Source: a virus. Taken from it: a stretch of DNA of 64,000 bases. The notes under the pieces are model-generated. The model was not told the origin of the DNA. It did no database searches and was given only the letters and a program-made list of their open reading frames with translations. Positions 10,712 through 32,886 of this stretch are shown here, in pieces. Position 1 is the first letter of the stretch. The number at the start of each line of letters is the position of its first letter. The translations under genes and the position numbers were made by a program. The stretch spans positions 69,234-133,233 of the IMG/VR virus record IMGVR_UViG_3300042319_001830, one strand, 5' to 3'.

Positions 10712-11193
10712 TCAAAACCAGATTCTTCGTCTTCGCCTTCGTCATCATCCTCTTCATCTAAATAGTCTTCATCATTGTCGTTATTAATATTATATTTTTC
10801 TTTAAATTCTGAAACGTCGTCATTTGTGATGCCACAGAGGAAAAATACAGCTTGTATGTATAATATTATTTCTTCTTTGGTAAATTTATTCTTTTTAAAA
10901 TATTCACTAATTTCACTTGAGGTTGAAGCTATTTTCTTTTGAACAGTCGGTTTAATTTTAATTTTTGGTGGTACGCCATCTAATATTATGCCCGGTATAT
11001 CTTCAATAGTTGAATCATCTATATGTTTACTTATAATGTGTTTATACAGTTCATTCTCGATTTTATCTTCGGGTATTCCTGTTTTTAATAGTTTCTTTTT
11101 TATATTATTTATTTTTGTAGGACTTACTTTTTTACATATATTGAATGATGTTAGTATGCCATTTTGAGATAATAGATGTTTTATATTATTCAT
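10708..11193 (-). CDS. Hypothetical protein with acidic tail
   Basis: ORF in operon-like run. Confidence 0.55.
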   Translation of the reverse strand: MNNIKHLLSQNGILTSFNICKKVSPTKINNIKKKLLKTGIPEDKIENELYKHIISKHIDDSTIEDIPGIILDGVPPKIKIKPTVQKKIASTSSEISEYFKKNKFTKEEIILYIQAVFFLCGITNDDVSEFKEKYNINNDNDEDYLDEEDDDEGEDEESGFE

Positions 11194-25731: not shown

Positions 25732-26274
25732 ATGAACGTTTTGGATCACTTAAAGAACAGTTCCGTGGACGATATTAAGTCCTACTGTAAAAACAATTGT
25801 ATTGATGCTAGCGTTGCTATGATGCACGTTAATGGCGATTTTAATCTATCCACTTTAGTCCGTAATGCCAACTTCTTTGGCTTCAAGGAAGCAATGTATG
25901 TAGGCGGAAGCAAACAGTGGGATCGTCGTGGTACTGTTGGTACACATCATTATACCGATTTAAATCATCTTAAGACTGAAGAAGAATTCGTACAGTATGT
26001 AAATGATAATGGTTATACACTACTCGCTGTAGAAAACAATATTCCCAAGTATAGTGATAAAACTGTTTCCATATTTAATCACTGGGTATTCAGTGGTGTA
26101 GATAAGCCAATGTTTGTATTTGGCGAAGAAAAGAGCGGATTGAGTGATTACATTCTTGACAATGCTGAAACTGTCATCACTATTCCAGCATATGGTAGTG
26201 TACGATCACTTAACGTGGGTACCACTAGCGGAATTGTAATGGGATTTTATCGCAACTATATTGATAACAATTAA
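25732..26274 (+). CDS. SpoU/TrmH-family (SPOUT) RNA 2'-O-methyltransferase
   Basis: FNLSTLVRNANFFG, FVFGEEKSGL and IPAYGSVRSLNV motifs. Confidence 0.88.
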   Translation: MNVLDHLKNSSVDDIKSYCKNNCIDASVAMMHVNGDFNLSTLVRNANFFGFKEAMYVGGSKQWDRRGTVGTHHYTDLNHLKTEEEFVQYVNDNGYTLLAVENNIPKYSDKTVSIFNHWVFSGVDKPMFVFGEEKSGLSDYILDNAETVITIPAYGSVRSLNVGTTSGIVMGFYRNYIDNN

Positions 26275-26490: not shown

Positions 26491-26500
26491 AAAAAGAACG

Positions 26501-26529
26501 TTGACATTTTTCAAAAGCCGTGGTAAGAT
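26501..26529 (+). promoter_or_regulatory. sigma70-type promoter with extended -10
   Basis: TTGACA-17nt(...TGG)-TAAGAT with an upstream A-tract. Confidence 0.8.
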
Positions 26530-26568
26530 AAGTTTGTAGTCGGTAAACATTAACAAAAAACAAAAAAT

Positions 26569-26841
26569 ATGAACAAGAACAAGACAGGCCGTAAGGCAAC
26601 CGTAGTAAACGAAATCACTGATCGCAATTTCACTATTGTTGATCTGGTTAATATCAACTCAACTGTGAAGGCGCCAACAATTCGGATGCACGTTAAGCGA
26701 AGTGTATCCGCTGGACGATACAAGATCAGTGGGTCGCAAAAGACTGGTAAGCGAGGTAAGCCAAGTCTAGTATATACATATGACGCAACTCCCGCTGTCA
26801 CATCAACCACTGTTGAATCTACTCAGACTTCTGCAAATTAA
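26569..26841 (+). CDS. Putative winged-helix DNA-binding protein
   Basis: FTIVDL...APTIRMHV...GKRGKPSLVY wing-like motif. Confidence 0.5.
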   Translation: MNKNKTGRKATVVNEITDRNFTIVDLVNINSTVKAPTIRMHVKRSVSAGRYKISGSQKTGKRGKPSLVYTYDATPAVTSTTVESTQTSAN

Positions 26842-26855
26842 ACAGTATCTAGATT

Positions 26856-26890
26856 AGGGATTAATAAAAAAAACTTGTTAATCCCTTTTT
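26856..26890 (+). terminator. Intrinsic terminator
   Basis: AGGGATTAA...TTAATCCCT followed by TTTT. Confidence 0.65.
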
Positions 26891-26919
26891 CTACCACTAT
26901 TTATTTTTAAAAGTAGTAT

Positions 26920-27075
26920 ATGGGAAAGTCATTCAAAGATCGTCGTTCACGCAGTGAAGGAAATTGGCGCAACAAATCAACCAAAAAGGTTAACAAAAAG
27001 TGGCAAAACACTGAGGTAAAACCATCACGGTACAATTCAAAATATGAAGACGAAGACAACTCAAACAGTAATTAA
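26920..27075 (+). CDS. Small charged protein (51 aa, not in ORF track)
   Basis: MGKSFKDRRSRSEGNWRNKSTKKVNKKWQNTEVKPSRYNSKYEDEDNSNSN*. Confidence 0.5.
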   Translation: MGKSFKDRRSRSEGNWRNKSTKKVNKKWQNTEVKPSRYNSKYEDEDNSNSN

Positions 27076-27226
27076 CAATCTTAAAGCGAAAATCGCAAGT
27101 AAAAATTTACAACTAACAGATCTATACGCAGAATATTACTATAAAGCTGCTATCAAACAAGCGGTAGATGAAAAGTTTGGTACTGAACCAAATCGTGATC
27201 TACTACGCTACGTCGAAAAAAAGTAA
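27044..27226 (+). CDS. Hypothetical protein
   Basis: Co-directional small ORF. Confidence 0.45.
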   Translation: MKTKTTQTVINNLKAKIASKNLQLTDLYAEYYYKAAIKQAVDEKFGTEPNRDLLRYVEKK

Positions 27227-27250
27227 ATTAAACATTTAAATAAAGGTTAT

Positions 27251-27538
27251 ATGAAAGATACTACACTCAAACAGTTGGTACGTGACCGCAATGGTCAACC
27301 CCGTGGTATGGTAGTTGCCACAGTAATCGATGGATCTATCCGATTTGGTTGGAGTCATACCAATACAAAAGCGGGTGATCGATTCGATAAATGCAAAGCA
27401 CTCACTATTGCTCTAGGTCGTGCTGAAAATGGTTGGGGTCCAAAAACAAATGTACCTGTTTCAACAATCAAAATTCTAAACAAGATGATTGATCGTTCCG
27501 TTCGATATTACAAAAATGTACCAGTCTACGGTATTTAA
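27251..27538 (+). CDS. Conserved small phage protein
   Basis: GWS.....D.FDK..AL.IA..RA motif. Confidence 0.6.
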   Translation: MKDTTLKQLVRDRNGQPRGMVVATVIDGSIRFGWSHTNTKAGDRFDKCKALTIALGRAENGWGPKTNVPVSTIKILNKMIDRSVRYYKNVPVYGI

Positions 27539-27555
27539 TTTAATTATTCATAAAT

Positions 27556-27888
27556 ATGGACAAGTATATTACTGACAATTTCACGGGGTCAATCGACGAT
27601 CTATTAAATCATTGTACAAACCTTGATATAGATAAAGTTGAAGCGCAAGTAAAAGTCGAAGAAAAAGAAGCTTGTATTCAAATAATTATGAAAGAAGCAA
27701 GCTGTGATGAATCAGAAGCTAATGTCATTTATAACGAAATTCTTTTGACAGAAACAAAAACAACCGTTGACAAAATGGTAGCTGACGGCATACTATATGT
27801 ATCAGGCCATAACGAAGATGGCGAACCACTGTTTAATCTGACCGAACTTGGTAAATCAGTTCGTAACGAACTAAACGACAACAAGTAA
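27556..27888 (+). CDS. Hypothetical protein, wHTH-like C-terminus
   Basis: MVADGIL...FNLTELGK. Confidence 0.55.
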   Translation: MDKYITDNFTGSIDDLLNHCTNLDIDKVEAQVKVEEKEACIQIIMKEASCDESEANVIYNEILLTETKTTVDKMVADGILYVSGHNEDGEPLFNLTELGKSVRNELNDNK

Positions 27889-27903
27889 AAACTATACTAT
27901 AAC

Positions 27904-27984
27904 GCTCCGGTAATGGCGGGGACTTCTAAGCCCTAAGTGCATAATTGGATGAAAATGGGGGTTCAATTCCCTCCCGGAGCGCCA
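27904..27984 (+). tRNA. Atypical D-armless tRNA-Arg(UCU)-like RNA
   Basis: Acceptor GCTCCGG/CCGGAGC, G73, CCA; T-arm GGGGG-TTCAATT-CCCTC; anticodon loop CT-TCT-AA; no D-arm; 22-nt extra region. Confidence 0.65.
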
Positions 27985-28712
27985 TTTCCATAAAGTCTGT
28001 CTATTAAATTCCATCCGTATTTTTTATACATATGTAAATTTTCTCTTTTAGTTTCTTTGGTGATGCCATTCTTTTCAATGATAATTTTCTTTGTATTAGA
28101 ATTATAAAGATGTGTATCTGCGCATACGGTTGTACAGTATTTGTGAATAGAAGTTCTTGGTAAAAATAGTTTGTTACAATGAACACATTTTGTTTCTTTT
28201 GATTCAAATTTTGGTAAAAAATGTTTCTCCCAGTTAATCACTCTGCCAGAAATCCATCCAATAGGAACATTGTCCGTATAAAATTTATTGCTTAATTTTA
28301 ATTCTACATTGTGATACCATTTTTTTCCATAACAACTATTAGATGTACCCGATTGTGAATATGATTGAATTTTACTAAATTCAATTTTCAATTTTTGATA
28401 GATTCTATTATTTATTTTATATTCTCTACATTGATTTTCACTCTTATACCAAGACATTAAAGCAAATGATTTCCACATTTTTTTATATTCTTTTGAAGAA
28501 GGTGGAAATACGGAAGTTAATAAAAGATGACATATATAATGTTCTCTTGCCGTCAATTTAACTAAATTTGAAGAATAATTTGACCCTCCTAAACATTTTG
28601 GAATTATATGGTGGGTTTCTGTATATTGATTTAAGATTGGATTGGTTAAACGATTATTGATTATACGATAATACCAATTTTTATATTTATTGTTCTGTTC
28701 TTCTAAAGTCAT
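27963..28712 (-). mobile_element. Free-standing HNH homing endonuclease
   Basis: ETHHIIPKCLGG...NLVKLTAREHYICHLLL; sits antisense in the tRNA region with its 3' end overlapping the tRNA-like gene. Confidence 0.85.
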
Positions 28713-28828
28713 AATAAAAGTTATTTACTTATAAATATACTTTAGAAGTTGTAAACATATTGTTTTTTGAATGTATTCATATATTTTACATATATATATG
28801 TTACCTCAAAACTTCTCGAAAAAAGAAG

Positions 28829-28875
28829 TTGATCTTTGAAATTTTAGTGGTAAGATAAAAGAGTAGTAAGTAATA
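28829..28875 (+). promoter_or_regulatory. Stable-RNA promoter copy 1
   Basis: TTGATC-16nt-TAAGAT; 29-mer GTGGTAAGATAAAAGAGTAGTAAGTAATA identical in three copies. Confidence 0.7.
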
Positions 28876-28988
28876 AGTATTTTGTTCTTTCAGCACGGTG
28901 GGAGTGGCACTCCTCTAGAACATCTACGTATGGCGGAACTGCCTTGACCTTTAATCAAAGGGAGTCACCAACGAAAGAATGAAAACTT
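28876..28988 (+). ncRNA. Candidate structured ncRNA A
   Basis: GC-rich non-coding island closed by TTCTTTC/GAAAGAA and GGTG/CACC, with four internal hairpins. Confidence 0.55.
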
Positions 28989-28991
28989 AAG

Positions 28992-29049
28992 TTGACTTTA
29001 GAATAAAACGTGGTAAGATAAAAGAGTAGTAAGTAATAGTTCTTTAACA
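28992..29049 (+). promoter_or_regulatory. Stable-RNA promoter copy 2 plus boxA-like motif
   Basis: TTGACT-16nt-TAAGAT, the shared 29-mer, then GTTCTTTAACA. Confidence 0.8.
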
Positions 29050-29058
29050 AATTTTAAT

Positions 29059-29135
29059 GGCCTTGTAGCTCAGTTGGTTAGAGCAGAAGCCTTTTAAGCT
29101 TTTGGTCGTGGGTTCGAGTCCCACCGGGGCCACCA
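29059..29135 (+). tRNA. tRNA-Lys(UUU)
   Basis: Canonical cloverleaf, GAAGC-CTTTTAA-GCTTT, encoded CCA. Confidence 0.95.
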
Positions 29136-29139
29136 TTTT

Positions 29140-29353
29140 AACTGGTAATAAACGAAGTAAATTATATATTGTGGTACTACTACACTTTTTAGTATCGTGA
29201 TTGATTACGAAAGCATTTTTTCCGTGTAAAATTTGACTTTCATCATTAAACAAATTAAATGATTAAACCAAACACAACTGTGTGTCGTGCTGAAAAATGT
29301 CGGTAACACAGCGATGCTTACGTAGATAAGTAACTCAATGAATATTACCAGTT
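29140..29353 (+). ncRNA. Candidate structured ncRNA B
   Basis: 11-bp terminal stem AACTGGTAATA/TATTACCAGTT spans the whole Lys-Glu spacer; several internal hairpins. Confidence 0.6.
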
Positions 29354-29357
29354 TAAC

Positions 29358-29432
29358 GGTCCATTCGTCTATCGGTTAGGACGCTGCCCTTTCAAGGCGG
29401 AGAGAGGAGTTCGATTCTCCTATGGACTACCA
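29358..29432 (+). tRNA. tRNA-Glu(UUC)
   Basis: Cloverleaf, CTGCC-CTTTCAA-GGCGG, CCA. Confidence 0.93.
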
Positions 29433-29443
29433 TTTTATGTTTG

Positions 29444-29596
29444 TCCGTTGCTTAAAAGAAACGGAATGGTGGAGGGTACATAACCAAAATACCCCTAGAG
29501 TTGGAAGTTCTCTTAAAAAACTTCTTGGTTGCGGGGTTAGCAAATGGTATACTTTGTTTGTTGGGTGGATAAAGTATTCAATAATTACACCCAACA
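29444..29596 (+). ncRNA. Candidate structured ncRNA C (hairpin chain)
   Basis: Five consecutive hairpins with possible pseudoknots, between tRNA genes. Confidence 0.45.
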
Positions 29597-29627
29597 CAAT
29601 TTTTAAAATAGTTCTTTAAATTTAAAC

Positions 29628-29702
29628 AGCTGGCGGCAGGTTATTATTTGACGATGGCTCATAACCATTGGTAACTAAGTGAAATTCTTAGGCGAGCGAC
29701 CA
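29628..29702 (+). tRNA. Atypical tRNA-like RNA, anticodon CAU
   Basis: CGATGG-CTCATAA-CCATTG; T-arm CTAAG-TGAAATT-CTTAG; two acceptor mismatches; ACCA end. Confidence 0.6.
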
Positions 29703-29709
29703 TTTCAGT

Positions 29710-29781
29710 GGCTGGGGTTTCAGCAAACGACGAATCCTCATAAGGTTTGTTAAGTGGGGGCAGCACCCATACCAGCTACCA
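29710..29781 (+). tRNA. Atypical tRNA-like RNA, anticodon CAU
   Basis: GGCTGG/CCAGCT acceptor; mini D-arm GTTT-CAGC-AAAC; T-arm GTGGG-GGCAGCA-CCCAT; ACCA end. Confidence 0.6.
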
Positions 29782-29805
29782 TTTTAGTTCTTTAACAAAA
29801 CAATT

Positions 29806-29883
29806 TGCGGGTGAGTGAAACGGAAAATCATTCCTGGCTCATAACCAGTGAGATAGTGGGTTCGACTCCCACACCCGCTACCA
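29806..29883 (+). tRNA. Initiator-like tRNA-Met(CAU)
   Basis: TGCGGGT/ACCCGCT with 1:72 mismatch; CTGG-CTCATAA-CCAG; canonical T-arm; CCA. Confidence 0.85.
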
Positions 29884-29889
29884 TTTAGT

Positions 29890-29983
29890 GGTTCCGTAGT
29901 TTAACGGTAGAACGCAACGCTTATAACGTTGATAAGCTCTAGATTTGAGCACGGTCTCGGTTCGAATCCGGGCGGAACCACCA
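29890..29983 (+). tRNA. tRNA-Ile(UAU) with long variable arm
   Basis: GGTTCCG/CGGAACC; CAACG-CTTATAA-CGTTG; variable hairpin GCTC-TAGATTT-GAGC; CCA. Confidence 0.85.
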
Positions 29984-30058
29984 TTTTTAATAGTTCATTG
30001 AAAATAAAATTAAATTGGTAGACGCTTCTAATGGTAGACGCTACTATTTATTAGTAGT

Positions 30059-30736
30059 ATGAAACCATATGTCTACAAGATAACATCAAAAAATAAAGAA
30101 TATTATTTCGGGGTAAGATGGGGATATATATCAACTCCACAACAAGACTTGTGGAAAGATTATTTTACTTCATCTACATTAGTTCACGAATTAATCCAGA
30201 AAAATGGAAAAGAATATTTTGATGCTGAAATTTTATTTCTTTTTGATTCAAAAGAAGATGCTCTTAATAAAGAAATAGATTTGATAAAATCATCAATGAA
30301 AGATGAAAAATGTCTAAACAGAGCGTGTGGTAAATGTACAATATGGGATGACAATCTTAAAAAAAGAATGACGGAAAATATTAAGAAATTTTACAAAGAA
30401 AATAAAGATATATTAAAAAAATTAAGTGATGCTAAAAAAGGAGATAAAAATCCTAATTTTGGATGTCCGCCGTGGAGAAATGGTTTAGGTCACAAAAAAT
30501 CTTGGGTAAAAGCAATTGATATTTATAATGATTATGTTGTAGAAAACTGGCCTATTTTTGGTAAAAACAAAAAGTCTTACGGAAGAGTCTTCCTAACTAA
30601 GAGATATGGCATAGTTACAGGAACAGCAAGAAAATTGTTGATTTTATTGCAAAATGGTTGGAGTCCATATCAAGATAAAGATTTTCAAGAATTTTTGAAA
30701 AGTCAGTTGACTTCAGAAGAAAATGTGGTAAGATAA
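30059..30736 (+). mobile_element. GIY-YIG (seg-like) homing endonuclease
   Basis: YVYKIT....YYFGVR...YFTSS...E...LN; NUMOD3-like KKLSDAKKGDKNPNFG; inserted in the tRNA array. Confidence 0.82.
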
Positions 30737-30764
30737 AAGAGTAGTAAGTAATAGTTCTTTGTAA
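30707..30764 (+). promoter_or_regulatory. Stable-RNA promoter copy 3 plus boxA-like motif
   Basis: TTGACT-16nt-TAAGAT, the shared 29-mer, then GTTCTTTGTAA; overlaps the endonuclease stop. Confidence 0.78.
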
Positions 30765-30776
30765 CTAATTTTTAGT

Positions 30777-30864
30777 GGGCAAGTGGCGAAATTGGCGAAA
30801 CGCAAGGGACTTAAAATCCCTTACTTAAGAAACGTTGTGGGTTCGAATCCCACCTTGCCTACCA
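30777..30864 (+). tRNA. tRNA-Leu(UAA)
   Basis: AGGGA-CTTAAAA-TCCCT, long variable region, CCA. Confidence 0.92.
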
Positions 30865-30879
30865 TTTTTTGAATTTAAT

Positions 30880-30952
30880 GCGGGTCAGGTGTAAAGAGAG
30901 CACGTTAGTCTACCAGACTAAAAGGCGAAATGCAAAGTTCGGACCCGCTCCA
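30880..30952 (+). tRNA. Atypical tRNA-Gly(ACC)
   Basis: GCGGGTC/GACCCGC, U73, CCA; TTAGT-CTACCAG-ACTAA; degenerate T-arm. Confidence 0.7.
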
Positions 30953-30960
30953 ATTTTAAT

Positions 30961-31036
30961 GCGATATTAGTGTCTATGAGGAGCACGGTGGGCCTTCCAG
31001 TCCACAAGGCCGGTGCAAGTCCGAGATATCGCTCCA
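30961..31036 (+). tRNA. Atypical tRNA-Gly(UCC)
   Basis: GCGATAT/ATATCGC, U73, CCA; anticodon loop is 6 or 8 nt rather than 7; T-loop TGCAAGT. Confidence 0.65.
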
Positions 31037-31045
31037 GTTTTACTT

Positions 31046-31121
31046 GGGTCAATAGCTCAATGGTTAGAGCGTAGAACTCATAATTCTTTGGTTACCGGTT
31101 CAAGTCCGGTTTGACCCACCA
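31046..31121 (+). tRNA. tRNA with CAU anticodon (Ile2/lysidine-type or elongator Met)
   Basis: Canonical cloverleaf GGGTCAA/TTGACCC; loop CTCATAA; CCA. Confidence 0.9.
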
Positions 31122-31133
31122 TTTAAAGTTAAT

Positions 31134-31164
31134 AAAAGCCCCATCATTAATTTGGTGGGGTTTT
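31134..31164 (+). terminator. Terminator of the tRNA operon
   Basis: AAAAGCCCCATCA-TTAATT-TGGTGGGGTTTT. Confidence 0.75.
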
Positions 31165-31190
31165 GTGGTTATTATATTTTGATATTTTGC

Positions 31191-31219
31191 TTGACTGTTG
31201 AGTATAGATGGTATATATT
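31191..31219 (+). promoter_or_regulatory. sigma70-type promoter
   Basis: TTGACT-17nt-TATATT, 10 nt before ATG 31230. Confidence 0.55.
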
Positions 31220-31229
31220 AATAGGTGAT

Positions 31230-31472
31230 ATGGCACATTTTGTAAAACTCTCGGTATTGGATCCTGGTCACGATGATCTTGAAAACACAACAAATAGAAA
31301 ATATAATCCACAGTTAATTAACTTGGATATGGTTATCAACGTTGAGCAATCGAAGGTTCATAGTTTGATTTTTACTAAAAATAACACACAGCATCCTATA
31401 CGAGTGAGAGAGTCTCTTGATGAGATTTTATCTGTATCGATGGGATGTGTTAAAAACGTTTTAAACGGTTAA
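31230..31472 (+). CDS. Hypothetical protein (FlbD-like pattern)
   Basis: MAHFVKL...LINLDMVINVE...IRVRESLDEI; start moved downstream of the terminator and promoter. Confidence 0.55.
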   Translation: MAHFVKLSVLDPGHDDLENTTNRKYNPQLINLDMVINVEQSKVHSLIFTKNNTQHPIRVRESLDEILSVSMGCVKNVLNG

Positions 31473-31475
31473 TAT

Positions 31476-32180
31476 ATGATTAATATAAAAAGCATCAATG
31501 TTTCTTCTTATAAAGAGGAATTTATTAAAAACAGGCGGATTGTAATAGATAATTTTTTAACTGAGGAGTGGGCGGACAAGTTGTATAAGTATTATACGAC
31601 TGAGATGGGCAAAGAATATTGGTCTGCTACATATATGCCTTCGCTTAGGTATGAGGGTGATTGGGAGTGGTGGCAGAATATTTCTGGTAACAGATATGTT
31701 ATGGAGCAGGCGTATCAGCATGCTTGTAATGCTAGAGACAACAATTTGTTTAGTTATTTTTTCTATAAAACGATGCCTAGTATTATGGAGAAGGCTAAGT
31801 CTACTGTTTATGAAGAAACGATGGCATTTTTTAACGGTAAAGAAATGGTTGATTTTATGAATAGTGTAACTGATTTGGATATTACGATAGGAGACAAAAC
31901 GTTTGTTAGTCGTTATGCTGAAAACTGTTTTTTGAGTAATCATACAGATGATGTAAATGGTAAATTGGCGTTTGTGTGTCATTTGACCAAAGATTGGAAT
32001 CCTGATTTTGGTGGATTGTATTTGGATTTGAGAGACAAAAGCAATATTAAGGCGATTAACCCATCTTTTAATAAATTAGTAATATTTGAAGTGACGGCTG
32101 GAGTTGCGCCTCATAGTGTGACACAGATTGTTAATAATTCAAACAAAGAAAGAATCAGTGTATCTGGTTGGTATAATTAA
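31476..32180 (+). CDS. 2OG-Fe(II) oxygenase (prolyl-hydroxylase-like)
   Basis: IDNFL, HTD, GGLY, P.FN.LV.F, HSV and R.SVSGW motifs. Confidence 0.85.
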   Translation: MINIKSINVSSYKEEFIKNRRIVIDNFLTEEWADKLYKYYTTEMGKEYWSATYMPSLRYEGDWEWWQNISGNRYVMEQAYQHACNARDNNLFSYFFYKTMPSIMEKAKSTVYEETMAFFNGKEMVDFMNSVTDLDITIGDKTFVSRYAENCFLSNHTDDVNGKLAFVCHLTKDWNPDFGGLYLDLRDKSNIKAINPSFNKLVIFEVTAGVAPHSVTQIVNNSNKERISVSGWYN

Positions 32181-32193
32181 AAAATAAATTGTT

Positions 32194-32886
32194 ATGTATA
32201 TTCCTGTAGAGCATGAGCATATTCCACTTGTAGTAATTGATAATTTTCTTCCCAGAGATTATGTTACTAGATTATATGAAGATTTTATCAAGTTAAAGCC
32301 ACATTTTGGCATTCCACATTGGAGTGGTGGTTATAATGATGGTGCTGCTTATAATCCGGATGAACCGTTGAGTCCATTGTGTACTGGTCAAGATCTTTGG
32401 TTACCTTTTGAAACAGATCAAGTGGAAAAGAACAAAGATTTGGGTTTTTACGTATCAAATTTAAGCAAATATATTTTTCATCAGGGAATATTAGATTTTT
32501 TAACCCACGCTAAAAATGAACAATTGACTGCGTATGCTAAATATAGATACTTGTATAAGTATCATATCATTAACTATGGTGATGGTGGATATTATAATTG
32601 GCATAGGGATTTGGCGGTTAGTGGAATGACTTGGGATGGTGTAGATGTAAATAAACAAAACGCATTTACATTTGCGCTTACTTTGGTTAAAGATCCTAGT
32701 GTAATGAAAGGTGGAGAACAATACTTTATGTATAAAAATCATACATACAGATTGCCACTTACAAGCAATCAGTTAACAATCTTTCCATCCACAGTGTTTC
32801 ACGCTTGTAGTGAGATTACTGCTCCGAAGGATTTGCCTTGGGAAAACAAGAGATTTAATATGCAAGCTTGGCTATGTCATGGTTGA
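32194..32886 (+). CDS. 2OG-Fe(II) oxygenase
   Basis: IDNFL, YNWHRD, GGE, IFPS..FH and RF motifs. Confidence 0.85.
   Translation: MYIPVEHEHIPLVVIDNFLPRDYVTRLYEDFIKLKPHFGIPHWSGGYNDGAAYNPDEPLSPLCTGQDLWLPFETDQVEKNKDLGFYVSNLSKYIFHQGILDFLTHAKNEQLTAYAKYRYLYKYHIINYGDGGYYNWHRDLAVSGMTWDGVDVNKQNAFTFALTLVKDPSVMKGGEQYFMYKNHTYRLPLTSNQLTIFPSTVFHACSEITAPKDLPWENKRFNMQAWLCHG

Follow-up and report, generated by a model that had tools for sequence, protein, structure and literature searches.

Direct reading of positions 27904 to 27984 (plus strand) of the window, the 64,000-nucleotide stretch of viral DNA analysed here, revealed a phage gene for an arginine tRNA-like RNA with the anticodon UCU, in which the pieces of the D-arm follow one another in a non-textbook order. 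From sequence comparison, we consider it probable (about 0.8) that the product of this gene is a functional tRNA-Arg(UCU) of the phage whose backbone departs from the cloverleaf topology. Canonical tRNA can be divided into segments A (1-9), B (10-21, the 5' D-stem strand plus the D-loop), C (22-47, comprising the 3' D-stem strand, position 26, the anticodon arm and the variable loop) and D (48-76). The window gene would follow the order A-C-B-D, with segments 10-21 and 22-47 swapped and their lengths still canonical. No report of swapped-core tRNAs of this kind was found in the literature searched.

The 5' strand of the acceptor stem (positions 1-7, 27904-27910) pairs at 7/7 positions with 27974-27980 and is followed by T8 and A9 (27911-27912) and by a 5' linker, ATGGC (27913-27917), which would be equivalent to canonical positions 22-26, that is, the 3' D-stem strand plus position 26. 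The original prediction, made from the letters of the window, had described an RNA with no D-arm and with TAATGGC as the sole link between the acceptor and anticodon stems. This was confirmed: the link is only 7 nt long (27911-27917), with 5 nt of it after TA9, and the canonical D-arm hairpin between positions 9 and 26 is absent. The anticodon arm (27-43, 27918-27934) has the loop CTTCTAA (27923-27929) with the anticodon TCT at 27925-27927; four of its five stem pairs are standard in the window copy and the loop-closing pair 27922/27930 (31:39) is A.G. Downstream lie the connector AAGT (27935-27938), equivalent to variable-loop positions 44-47 and giving a 5-nt variable loop together with position 48, and GCAT (27939-27942), the putative equivalent of positions 10-13 (5' D-stem strand), here located 3' of the anticodon arm. 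The D-loop equivalent (27943-27955) reads A14 A15 T16 T17 G18 G19 A20, then TGAAA and an A21-like base, and is followed by T48 (27956), the Levitt partner of A15 (27944). The whole 22-nt stretch 3' of the anticodon stem (27935-27956) holds AATTGGAT. The T-arm (49-65, 27957-27973) has the loop TTCAATT and 5 bp including one G.U. The remainder (27974-27984) comprises the 3' acceptor strand (66-72), the discriminator G73 at 27981 and an encoded CCA at 27982-27984, all read directly. The perfect 7-bp acceptor stem, G73-CCA, normal T-arm and Arg anticodon loop noted previously were all present in the sequence. The D-loop had also been described as displaced to the 3' side of the anticodon arm; it is displaced, but the 5' D-stem strand moved together with it.

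To place the gene among relatives, viral contigs were examined in five pattern scans. Parsing of scans 1-4 by a fixed descriptor yielded 126 distinct relatives, and each of them had an Arg anticodon (UCU, CCU, UCG, ACG or GCG). The anticodon was NCT or NCG in 126/126, with the TCT loop fixed in scans 1 and 4; the 64 unique members from scans with an unconstrained anticodon were Arg in 64/64 cases (TCT 47, CCT 11, TCG 3, GCG 2, ACG 1). TA at positions 8 and 9 was found in 126/126 members. The parser demanded TA[A/G]-N(1-2)-GGA, so this motif occurs in 126/126 by construction. The discriminator was A or G in 109/126 members (66 and 43, respectively), T in 15 and C in 2, and CCA was encoded in 65/126. 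Segment lengths were canonical in at least 107/126 members (4 nt for 22-25, 1 nt for position 26, 5 nt for the variable loop). The D-loop equivalent was long across the family (9-15 nt), which, like the A.G pair at 31:39 of the window copy, counts against the proposed tRNA. U33, C35 and A37 of the anticodon loop were invariant in family alignment A1, as were G53-C61, T54, T55, C56 and A58 in 64/64 family sequences.

Cultured carriers of the family include phages of Streptomyces, Rhodococcus, Pseudomonas, Alishewanella and Limnohabitans. When the window sequence was used as the query against the phage collection it retrieved two Alishewanella phage records only, and the others were reached by queries from other subfamilies. 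Different Arg isoacceptors occurred within single genomes, as TCT+CCT pairs and as TCT+TCG+ACG. A swapped tRNA-Ile was also present in a few jumbo phages and in Mildred21; these copies carry U or G, never A, at position 20. By these matches the element is a member of a large, mostly unannotated phage family, and is neither a one-off nor a pseudogene.

Covariation was examined in 95 sequences. With the rewired structure, 95.1% of cells were paired, compared with 63.1% after shuffling and 37-44% when the partners were slid. Double changes were identified at 7/7 acceptor pairs, 5/5 anticodon pairs, 4/5 T pairs and 3/3 pairs of the rewired D helix. This last helix, of 3 bp, pairs the 5' linker with the three bases immediately 5' of the D-loop motif and surrounds the anticodon arm; it covaries, with CG/UA/GC, GC/AU/CG/UA and GC/CG/AU at its three positions. 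Many combinations were found: CGG/CCG (25), CAC/GTG (10), CGA/TCG (6), CAG/CTG (4), CGT/GCG (2), CCC/GGG (2), and CAT/ATG, CTG/CAG, CCG/CGG and CGC/GCG once each, with ACC/GGT in Mildred21. Outside the TGG/GCA type of the window, 54/60 members had 3/3 D-helix pairs; the mean for these 60 was 2.88 pairs compared with 1.91 after shuffling, a value reached in 0/2000 shuffles. The family is widespread, and this covariation supports a non-cloverleaf backbone wiring.

In the window itself, T27914-A27941 corresponds to alignment columns 12-40 (CG57/UA34/GC4 in relatives) and G27915-C27940 to columns 13-38 (GC69/AU15/CG6/UA2). The original prediction had paired the linker ATG with the CAT 3' of the anticodon arm. 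Its T-A and G-C pairs fall at these covarying positions, but its A:T pair is unconserved: opposite the invariant T at 27942, the base after TA9 (A27913) may be A, T, C or G, and is unpaired in 22/64. The compensatory changes expected of a real linker helix were found in relatives, apart from the A:T pair. The third D-helix pair, G27916 with G27939, is G.G in the subfamily of the window, in which the D helix never varies, so that its support there is homology with the other subfamily. An alternative register, G27916.T27938 plus C27917-G27937, is also available, and two relatives carry C for T. A D-like hairpin formed locally within the 22-nt region (CAT, loop, ATG) was considered and rejected; its 3' ATG is unconserved in relatives, and the partner indicated by covariation is the 5' linker.

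These data bear on the possibility that the rearrangement exists in the gene alone, its transcript being cut and rejoined into a canonical tRNA in the manner of permuted or split tRNA genes. The canonical lengths of the segments, once placed in canonical order, would agree with such repair, and in a red alga permuted tRNA genes are matured via circular intermediates. In the phage family, however, the two acceptor strands keep their usual order and only internal segments are exchanged. Repair would take two cuts and two ligations, at sites that lack any bulge-helix-bulge or intron-like motif, and the helix around the anticodon arm covaries in the DNA order. We regard repair of this kind as very unlikely.

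Evidence for a tRNA-like core came from position pair 15:48, which is A:T in 124/126 members. A scan demanding G15 gave 24 unique matches, 8 of them family members, and C48 was present in 8/8. By this comparison the tertiary 15:48 pair covaries. U8, A14, G18, G19 and the T-loop bases were all present and conserved and never varied, and from these invariant bases we infer that the other tertiary contacts form as usual, with A14 as the partner of U8 as in canonical tRNA structure. Thermodynamic prediction was rejected as a test of a 3-bp helix stabilised by tertiary contacts, since the full fold was seldom recovered. The minimum-energy fold of the window sequence was a misfold (z -0.73), single-sequence folds contained all four helices in 7/60 and 0/66 members, and RNAalifold on alignment A1 returned only the three classical stems. 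Because minimum-energy folds rarely give the proposed structure, the 3-bp helix would have to rely on tertiary contacts. Together, the family, the linker helix and the 15:48 covariation support the earlier proposal of a topologically rewired tRNA-Arg with its elbow rebuilt 3' of the anticodon arm.

We also analysed how tRNA finders treat these genes. ARAGORN identified 6 ordinary tRNAs in the window and made no call at 27904-27984, and it called 0/126 family members in their native order. When the segments were put in canonical order 102/126 were called; a control with the moved block reversed was still called in 73/126, so the reordering test mainly shows correct spacing. The Rfam model RF00005 aligned 27904-27981 at 28.6 bits, below its gathering score of 29 (E = 0.0071); in this alignment 4 nt stand in place of 15 D-arm model positions, and the variable region carries 18 inserted nt. 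With a covariance model built on the family, the window site scored 73.2 bits compared with at most 28.5 for the ordinary tRNAs of the window, and the match of the site to the family is far above chance. In GenBank phage records the site was mostly blank, and otherwise annotated as tRNA-Ser, tRNA-Phe(gaa), tRNA-OTHER or a hypothetical protein. That such a gene would escape tRNA finders, as originally anticipated, was borne out. Since swapped genes are missed or mislabelled, phage tRNA repertoires and analyses of AGA, AGG and CGN codon supply would be systematically incomplete.

The Rfam score below threshold could be taken as a sign of a decayed or scrambled tRNA pseudogene, damaged by an adjoining homing-endonuclease gene, or of a leftover attachment-site fragment. 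A MobD-like endonuclease gene does abut and overlap the 3' end of the window tRNA gene. Decay is nevertheless a scarcely credible explanation, as the same architecture is found in 126 distinct sequences with compensatory changes, and is kept in relatives with no endonuclease insertion and in phages of unrelated hosts. An attachment-site fragment was likewise rejected. Both acceptor strands are present, so the window gene is not such a fragment, and no integrase was identified among the seven neighbouring ORFs scanned, which encode endonucleases, a SpoU methylase and oxygenases.

Arginine identity was assessed against the bacterial set, described in PMC9976931 as A20, C35, U/G36 and A/G73, with A20 as the main ArgRS determinant. 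The corresponding bases in the window are A27949 after GG, C27926, T27927 and G27981. The GGA of G18 G19 A20, which the original prediction had recognised as part of a displaced Arg D-loop, was retained in 64/64 unique members from a scan in which the D-loop was unconstrained, and C35 was invariant in the family alignment. By these bases the window gene and the family match the bacterial tRNA-Arg identity set. Codon demand pointed in the same direction. AGA, noted earlier as common in the window, is the commonest Arg codon there, with 303/478 Arg codons in ATG-started ORFs of at least 150 aa on both strands, some of which are perhaps spurious. No ordinary tRNA-Arg was found by ARAGORN in the window, and none was found in the cluster regions of PAK_P2 (5.1 kb) or Alishewanella phage Slicko01 (6.1 kb). 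The likeliest function suggested by these sequences is that of a working tRNA-Arg decoding AGA.

A different function can be envisaged for an RNA with these bases. It could be made but take no part in translation, serving as a decoy or sponge for a defence nuclease that targets tRNA-Arg, for ArgRS or for a modification enzyme; Arg identity elements would then be mimicked with no need of a working L-shape. A role of phage tRNAs against host defences that target tRNAs has been proposed (PMC10264068, PMC5764925), and a particular protein target could account for the unusual connectivity and for the confinement to Arg and Ile. A decoy, however, needs no covarying 7-bp acceptor stem, A/G discriminator or frequently encoded CCA, no conserved T-loop or covarying 15:48 pair, and no set of five different Arg anticodons present as isoacceptors in individual genomes. 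In addition, neither the window nor the cluster regions of PAK_P2 and the Alishewanella phage yielded any Arg tRNA other than the swapped one. We therefore regard a decoy as unlikely, and return to the proposed tRNA-Arg that would act in translation.

For such a tRNA-Arg, the following path of the backbone is proposed. The 5' linker (the 22-26 equivalent) would lead directly to the anticodon stem, after which the 4-nt connector (the 44-47 equivalent) would pass to the 10-13 strand, which pairs back with the linker; as a result, the short D-stem would close the anticodon arm and not the D-loop. The D-stem and anticodon stem would stack coaxially as in the L-shape, here as one continuous hairpin. 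The D-loop (A14, R15, G18, G19 and A20) would exit strand 13 as usual, and its A21-like base would join U48 and the T-stem directly. The usual tertiary layers could then form, with U8-A14, R15-Y48 and G18/G19 contacting the T-loop. RNase P and 3' processing would be expected to act on the normal acceptor/T minihelix, and the host ArgRS to charge the RNA via A20, C35, U36 and G73. The product would decode AGA, the main Arg codon of the phage, which is read by no ordinary tRNA of the window. The swapped order is likely to have arisen when B-C was duplicated in tandem and the first B and last C were then lost.

Comparison with canonical tRNA-Arg (RF00005) revealed extensive likeness. The 7-bp acceptor stem, A/G73, CCA, 5-bp T-stem and TTCRA loop are shared, as are the 5-bp anticodon stem, the 7-nt loop with U33, C35, U/G36 and A37, and also U8, A14, R15:Y48, G18, G19, A20 and the segment lengths. 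The differences lie in the order of the core: position 9 leads to the anticodon stem with no intervening hairpin, the anticodon arm is enclosed by the D-stem, and position 48 follows directly on the D-loop. A non-canonical segment order is also known from the permuted tRNA genes of Cyanidioschyzon merolae, in which the 3' half lies upstream of the 5' half and circularisation leads to a canonical mature tRNA. In contrast, the phage genes have normal termini and an internal swap, and covariation supports the swapped order as the folded form.

Mitochondrial D-armless tRNAs, such as tRNA-Ser(AGY), resemble the phage genes in having no more than a short connector between the acceptor and anticodon stems. 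They are not known to carry G18/G19 and are used with co-evolved mitochondrial factors, whereas the phage family retains a D-stem, a GG-bearing D-loop, the T-loop and the 15:48 pair, and has to rely on ordinary bacterial machinery. As described in PMC7609411 and PMC11551756, the connector of the mitochondrial tRNAs replaces the D-arm and gives a less rigid, non-L (Y-shaped) fold. PMC11551756 also describes mini HisT, a synthetic D-arm-deleted tRNA used by evolved E. coli, for which a pnp mutation was needed; bacterial aaRS, EF-Tu and ribosomes can, by that account, accept a tRNA that has no cloverleaf D-arm. As presented there, mini HisT is artificial, lacks bases 11-25 and is predicted to be Y-shaped, whereas the phage family is natural and has its D elements relocated. 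Allo-tRNAs, with 8/4 or 9/3 acceptor/T stems, were found in bacteria and phages by metagenome mining according to PMC5389517, and share with the phage family a non-standard architecture in these organisms. As described, they remain cloverleaves with a D-arm and deviate in stem lengths; the phage family deviates in backbone connectivity.

Extending the argument beyond the window, the sequences make it reasonably likely that phages of many bacterial phyla carry natural elongator tRNAs, mainly Arg and sometimes Ile, that are A-C-B-D isomers of the cloverleaf, keep every layer of the L-core and work with unmodified bacterial ArgRS or IleRS, EF-Tu and ribosomes. The altered connectivity may be selected as an escape from host nucleases or factors that read the canonical D-arm. 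In the account of PMC11551756, all known bacterial tRNAs are cloverleaves and natural arm-less tRNAs occur in mitochondria only. If the proposal is true, these would be the first non-cloverleaf tRNAs used in non-mitochondrial translation, and the L-shape would be reachable in nature by more than one strand topology. The family would offer a natural test of which features of the tRNA core are recognised by ArgRS, IleRS, RNase P, EF-Tu, modification enzymes and the ribosome, and could supply orthogonal tRNAs with a new scaffold. The question is directly testable, since cultured carriers include phages that grow on laboratory hosts, such as the vB_PpuM phages of Pseudomonas putida KT2440 and the Streptomyces phages Mildred21 and Gilson.

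Finally, we examined the genomic setting and RNA coverage of the locus. A run search led to lake-water DNA runs and 6 metatranscriptome runs, and the contigs of 4 RNA runs were compared with 26500-31500. RNA contigs spanned the upstream ORFs as far as 27888 and, downstream, portions of the tRNA cluster; 27904-27984 and the endonuclease gene lay outside the RNA contigs of these 4 runs, and such contigs cannot show small-RNA ends. Between 27400 and 29200 there were 9 promoter-like sites compared with 9.2 expected, and 0 terminators. A tblastn search with the SpoU protein of the window gave no match in the relatives' loci, which have short flanks. The window tRNA and that of relative L004 differ at 1 position, whereas their flanks are 85% identical, a contrast that points to selection on the tRNA. 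Family members sit in phage tRNA arrays, and in Mildred21 the swapped gene lies within such an array, 5 nt after a tRNA-Gly.

Inspection of positions 27904-27984 (+ strand) revealed every element listed in the original prediction, which had proposed a rewired tRNA-Arg(UCU) with a D-loop-like sequence located 3' of the anticodon arm. The acceptor stem (27904-27910 with 27974-27980) formed a perfect 7 bp helix, and G73 and an encoded CCA came next. The T-arm (27957-27973) carried the loop TTCAATT, and the anticodon loop CTTCTAA (27923-27929) contained TCT at 27925-27927. The acceptor and anticodon stems were separated by 7 bases, and the 22 bases between the anticodon stem and the T-stem included AATTGGAT. 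The pair that closes the anticodon loop (27922/27930) was A.G in the window copy. ARAGORN identified six ordinary tRNAs in the window between 29059 and 31121 (Lys, Glu, Met, Ile-UAU, Leu-UAA and Met) and called no tRNA at 27904-27984. The Rfam tRNA model aligned 27904-27981 at 28.6 bits against a threshold of 29, with 15 D-arm positions deleted and 18 nt inserted in the variable region; as anticipated, the element thus escapes standard tRNA finders.

When GenBank phages were searched by BLAST with the element, two Alishewanella phage records gave an aligned relative, which both label tRNA-Ser; ARAGORN made no call at this relative either. The two sequences had the block GTGCATAATTGGAT in common and differed in all stems, and this shared block was used to build pattern scans of IMG/VR. 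The pattern with a UCU loop returned 15 loci and the pattern with a free anticodon 51 loci, including GCG and TCG anticodons. Fixing only TGGC, GTGCA and the T-loop returned at least 120 loci; among the matches listed 97 were unique, and in these family members were readily separable from chance hits. Parsing with fixed thresholds (at least 6/7 acceptor pairs and at least 4/5 T pairs) yielded at least 64 unique members, all Arg (TCT 47, CCT 11, TCG 3, GCG 2, ACG 1). In the alignment of 64 members of the window's subfamily (A1), changes on both sides were observed in 7/7 acceptor, 5/5 anticodon-stem and 4/5 T-stem pairs, and 93.8% of cells were paired compared with 71.6% after shuffling and 32-51% with slid partners. 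The 5' linker N-TGGC, which lies between T8 A9 and the anticodon stem, and the block GTGCA were invariant across A1. A covariance model (R1) built on the swapped architecture scored the window element at 73.2 bits compared with 28.5 bits or less for the window's ordinary tRNAs. The element belongs to a large and conserved family of predicted segment-swapped tRNAs, mainly tRNA-Arg, carried by phages. A separate feature of A1 was a recurrent U.U mismatch at acceptor pair 6:67 (columns 6/77) in 16/64 members; this pair is G-C in the window copy (27909/27975).

An unannotated relative in Pseudomonas phage PAK_P2 differed both in its linker and in the block that precedes the TAATGGA motif. A scan excluding the window's own block returned 79 loci, in which three bases of the 5' linker were complementary to the three bases preceding TAA, in many versions. 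Application of a general parser to all loci gave at least 126 unique members, with the window's linker/block type TGG/GCA in 66, CGG/CCG in 25, CAC/GTG in 10, CGA/TCG in 6, CAG/CTG and GCC/AGC in 4 each, CGT/GCG and CCC/GGG in 2 each, and CAT/ATG, CTG/CAG, CCG/CGG, CGC/GCG, CCC/ACG, CGG/CTG and CTC/TAG in 1 each. All three pairs were present in 54/60 members not of the window's type, and the mean number of pairs in these 60 was 2.88 compared with 1.91 for shuffled combinations (matched by 0/2000 shuffles). In a MAFFT alignment of 95 sequences (A2), pair 12-40 was CG in 57, UA in 34 and GC in 4, with none unpaired; pair 13-38 was GC in 69, AU in 15, CG in 6, UA in 2, GU in 1 and other in 2; and pair 14-37 was GC in 31, CG in 13, AU in 7, UG in 2, UA in 1 and other in 41, the last being for the most part the G.G seen in the window's subfamily. 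Compensatory changes in the linker-block helix therefore exist among homologues, and at the level of covariation the second subfamily demonstrates the rewired D-stem. In the window copy, T27914-A27941 and G27915-C27940 were homologous to covarying A2 positions, and G27916 lay opposite G27939. An ATG/CAT pairing had originally been proposed here; its T-A and G-C pairs fall at covarying positions, and its A:T pair was not supported because the base after T8 A9 varies (A, T, C or G in A1) opposite an invariant T, leaving 22/64 members unpaired. An alternative register, not proven, would combine G27916.T27938 with C27917-G27937 and is compatible with the C found in place of T27938 in two relatives.

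A further covarying contact was observed between positions 15 (directly following TA in the D-loop motif) and 48, which were A and T, respectively, in 124/126 members. When G15 was demanded, the scan returned 31 loci with 24 unique matches, 8 of them family members from several subfamilies. All 8 carried C48, and one swapped tRNA-Ile likewise combined G15 with C48. In canonical tRNAs this contact is the Levitt pair, and it would put the relocated loop in the core layer of a normal D-loop. From established tRNA structure, we infer a mapping onto canonical numbering in which the gene order would be 1-9, 22-26, the anticodon arm 27-43, 44-47, 10-13, the D-loop 14-21, 48 and the T-arm, with segments 10-21 and 22-47 exchanged relative to the cloverleaf. 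Canonical segment lengths (4 nt for 22-25, 1 nt for position 26 and 5 nt for the variable loop including 48) were found in at least 107/126 members. In the canonical L-shape the D-stem is stacked on the anticodon stem, with strand 39-44 followed by strand 10-13 in the stack. Joining these strands would just close a nick, and the new joins 9-to-22 and 21-to-48 would connect bases of neighbouring core layers.

ARAGORN called 0 of the 126 members in their native order and 102 with segments in canonical order (anticodon unchanged in 95), a result that shows mainly correct spacing, as a reversed-block control was also called in 73. Minimum-energy folding recovered the proposed fold in only 7/60 and 0/66 members, and not in the window copy; the short helix must therefore depend on tertiary contacts. 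The element lacks the D hairpin between positions 9 and 26, keeps every other cloverleaf-defining feature that could be tested, and is a variant of tRNA, not a canonical member. Family comparison thus supports and extends the structural interpretation of a putative topologically rewired tRNA.

Bacterial ArgRS relies on A20, C35, U/G36 and A/G73, according to a review (PMC9976931). The GGA containing A20, which had been expected to be conserved in homologues, was present in all of the at least 64 unique members from the scan that placed no constraint on the D-loop; GGA was required by the parser that gave 126 members, so that set is uninformative on this point. C35 was invariant in A1, and the discriminator was A or G in 109/126 members. 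R1 identified 1-4 high-scoring copies in 14/15 whole phage records, and the 10 hits that scored above 50 bits across five jumbo-phage records comprised 6 Arg (5 UCU, 1 UCG) and 4 Ile (2 GAU, 2 UAU) copies; the topology is therefore not strictly Arg-specific. The swapped Ile copies had U or G at position 20, and the Ile copy of Streptomyces phage Mildred21 carried U12-A23, G16 and U20, all listed among bacterial Ile determinants in the same review; this suggests that the relocated loop acts as an identity-bearing D-loop. No ordinary Arg tRNA was detected in the window or in the PAK_P2 and Alishewanella phage cluster regions examined. AGA, correctly described beforehand as a common Arg codon, made up 303/478 Arg codons in window ORFs of at least 150 aa. 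Swapped genes sat within tRNA arrays and several genomes carried isoacceptor sets, a setting that fits real tRNAs. The window copy differed by one base from its relative on a related contig (L004), with flanks ~85% identical. Based on the identity elements, genomic setting and this conservation, we read the element as a working tRNA-Arg(UCU), and infer that it would be charged and would supply AGA decoding.

The DNA runs containing the window stretch were lake-water metagenomes. Mildred21 (MF155946.1) carried a swapped Arg-UCU labelled 'tRNA-OTHER', a swapped Arg-UCG (10989-11064 of its locus L188) labelled 'tRNA-Phe(gaa)', and unannotated Arg-ACG and Ile-GAU copies (record positions 73703-73779 and 94857-94933), with Ile-GAU directly following the phage tRNA nucleotidyltransferase gene. 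The paper announcing the genomes of Mildred21 and its relatives gives 43-48 tRNAs and, in the portion available, mentions nothing unusual. One phage BLAST returned 39 records, among them an uncultured jumbo phage and phages of Streptomyces (26 records), Rhodococcus (1) and Pseudomonas (10), and the site was unannotated in 34/39. A second returned 15 records, including Limnohabitans phage DC31, of which 13 were unannotated and 2 had the site under 'hypothetical protein'. A restrictive pattern applied to GTDB representative genomes (one per species, 185,579 prokaryote species) had 66 matches, and nine of these parsed as family members. These were mostly on short MAG contigs, including two archaea-binned contigs (L270, L301; Nitrosotalea, Thermoplasmata), together with one isolate scaffold (L290), which is 464 kb long and comes from a cultured alphaproteobacterium; the occurrences would fit prophage or mis-binned phage DNA. 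A full-text literature search, with subscription journals and supplements outside its scope, found no account of phages or bacteria having tRNAs with swapped segments or without a cloverleaf D-arm, and the terms 'phage' and 'virus' were absent from a review of non-canonical natural tRNAs (PMC7609411); an earlier description may exist.

Several other features were observed near the element. Contigs from two metatranscriptome runs (X15, X16) both stopped 16 nt short of the tRNA, at 27888, where the upstream ORF has its stop codon; strain variation, or a boundary of a transcript or of processing, may account for this. A 180-aa ORF 1.6 kb upstream (25732-26274, + strand) matched the SpoU-family RNA 2'-O-methyltransferases (79.9 bits) and is a possible tRNA-modifying enzyme; a search of the short flanks at other loci returned no SpoU homologue. 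A 249-aa ORF (27963-28712, - strand) had DNA-level likeness to MobD-type homing endonucleases of T4-like phages and a weak HNH_5 match (19.8 bits, cut-off 27.5). It lay inside a ~776-bp insertion (27988-28763) missing from three related contigs (L004, L005, L010), whose synteny with the window ended 3 nt past the tRNA CCA and restarted at 28764/28780, and its final 22 nt, including the stop codon, overlapped the T-loop and 3' strand of the swapped tRNA. Another free-standing endonuclease gene, the second in the tRNA region, was a 225-aa ORF flanked by ordinary tRNA genes (30059-30736, + strand) with a SegE-like GIY-YIG domain (24.8 bits, cut-off 25). A sub-threshold wcaG RNA motif (29435-29539, + strand; 33 bits, gathering score 42, E 0.0023) was located between tRNA-Glu and the next tRNA. 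The ordinary tRNA-Ile(UAU) (29890-29983, + strand; 94 nt by ARAGORN) had a 21-nt variable-region insert in the Rfam alignment, which is unusual for an Ile tRNA, and two adjacent 2OG-Fe(II) oxygenase ORFs (31476-32886, + strand) were present immediately past the tRNA cluster.
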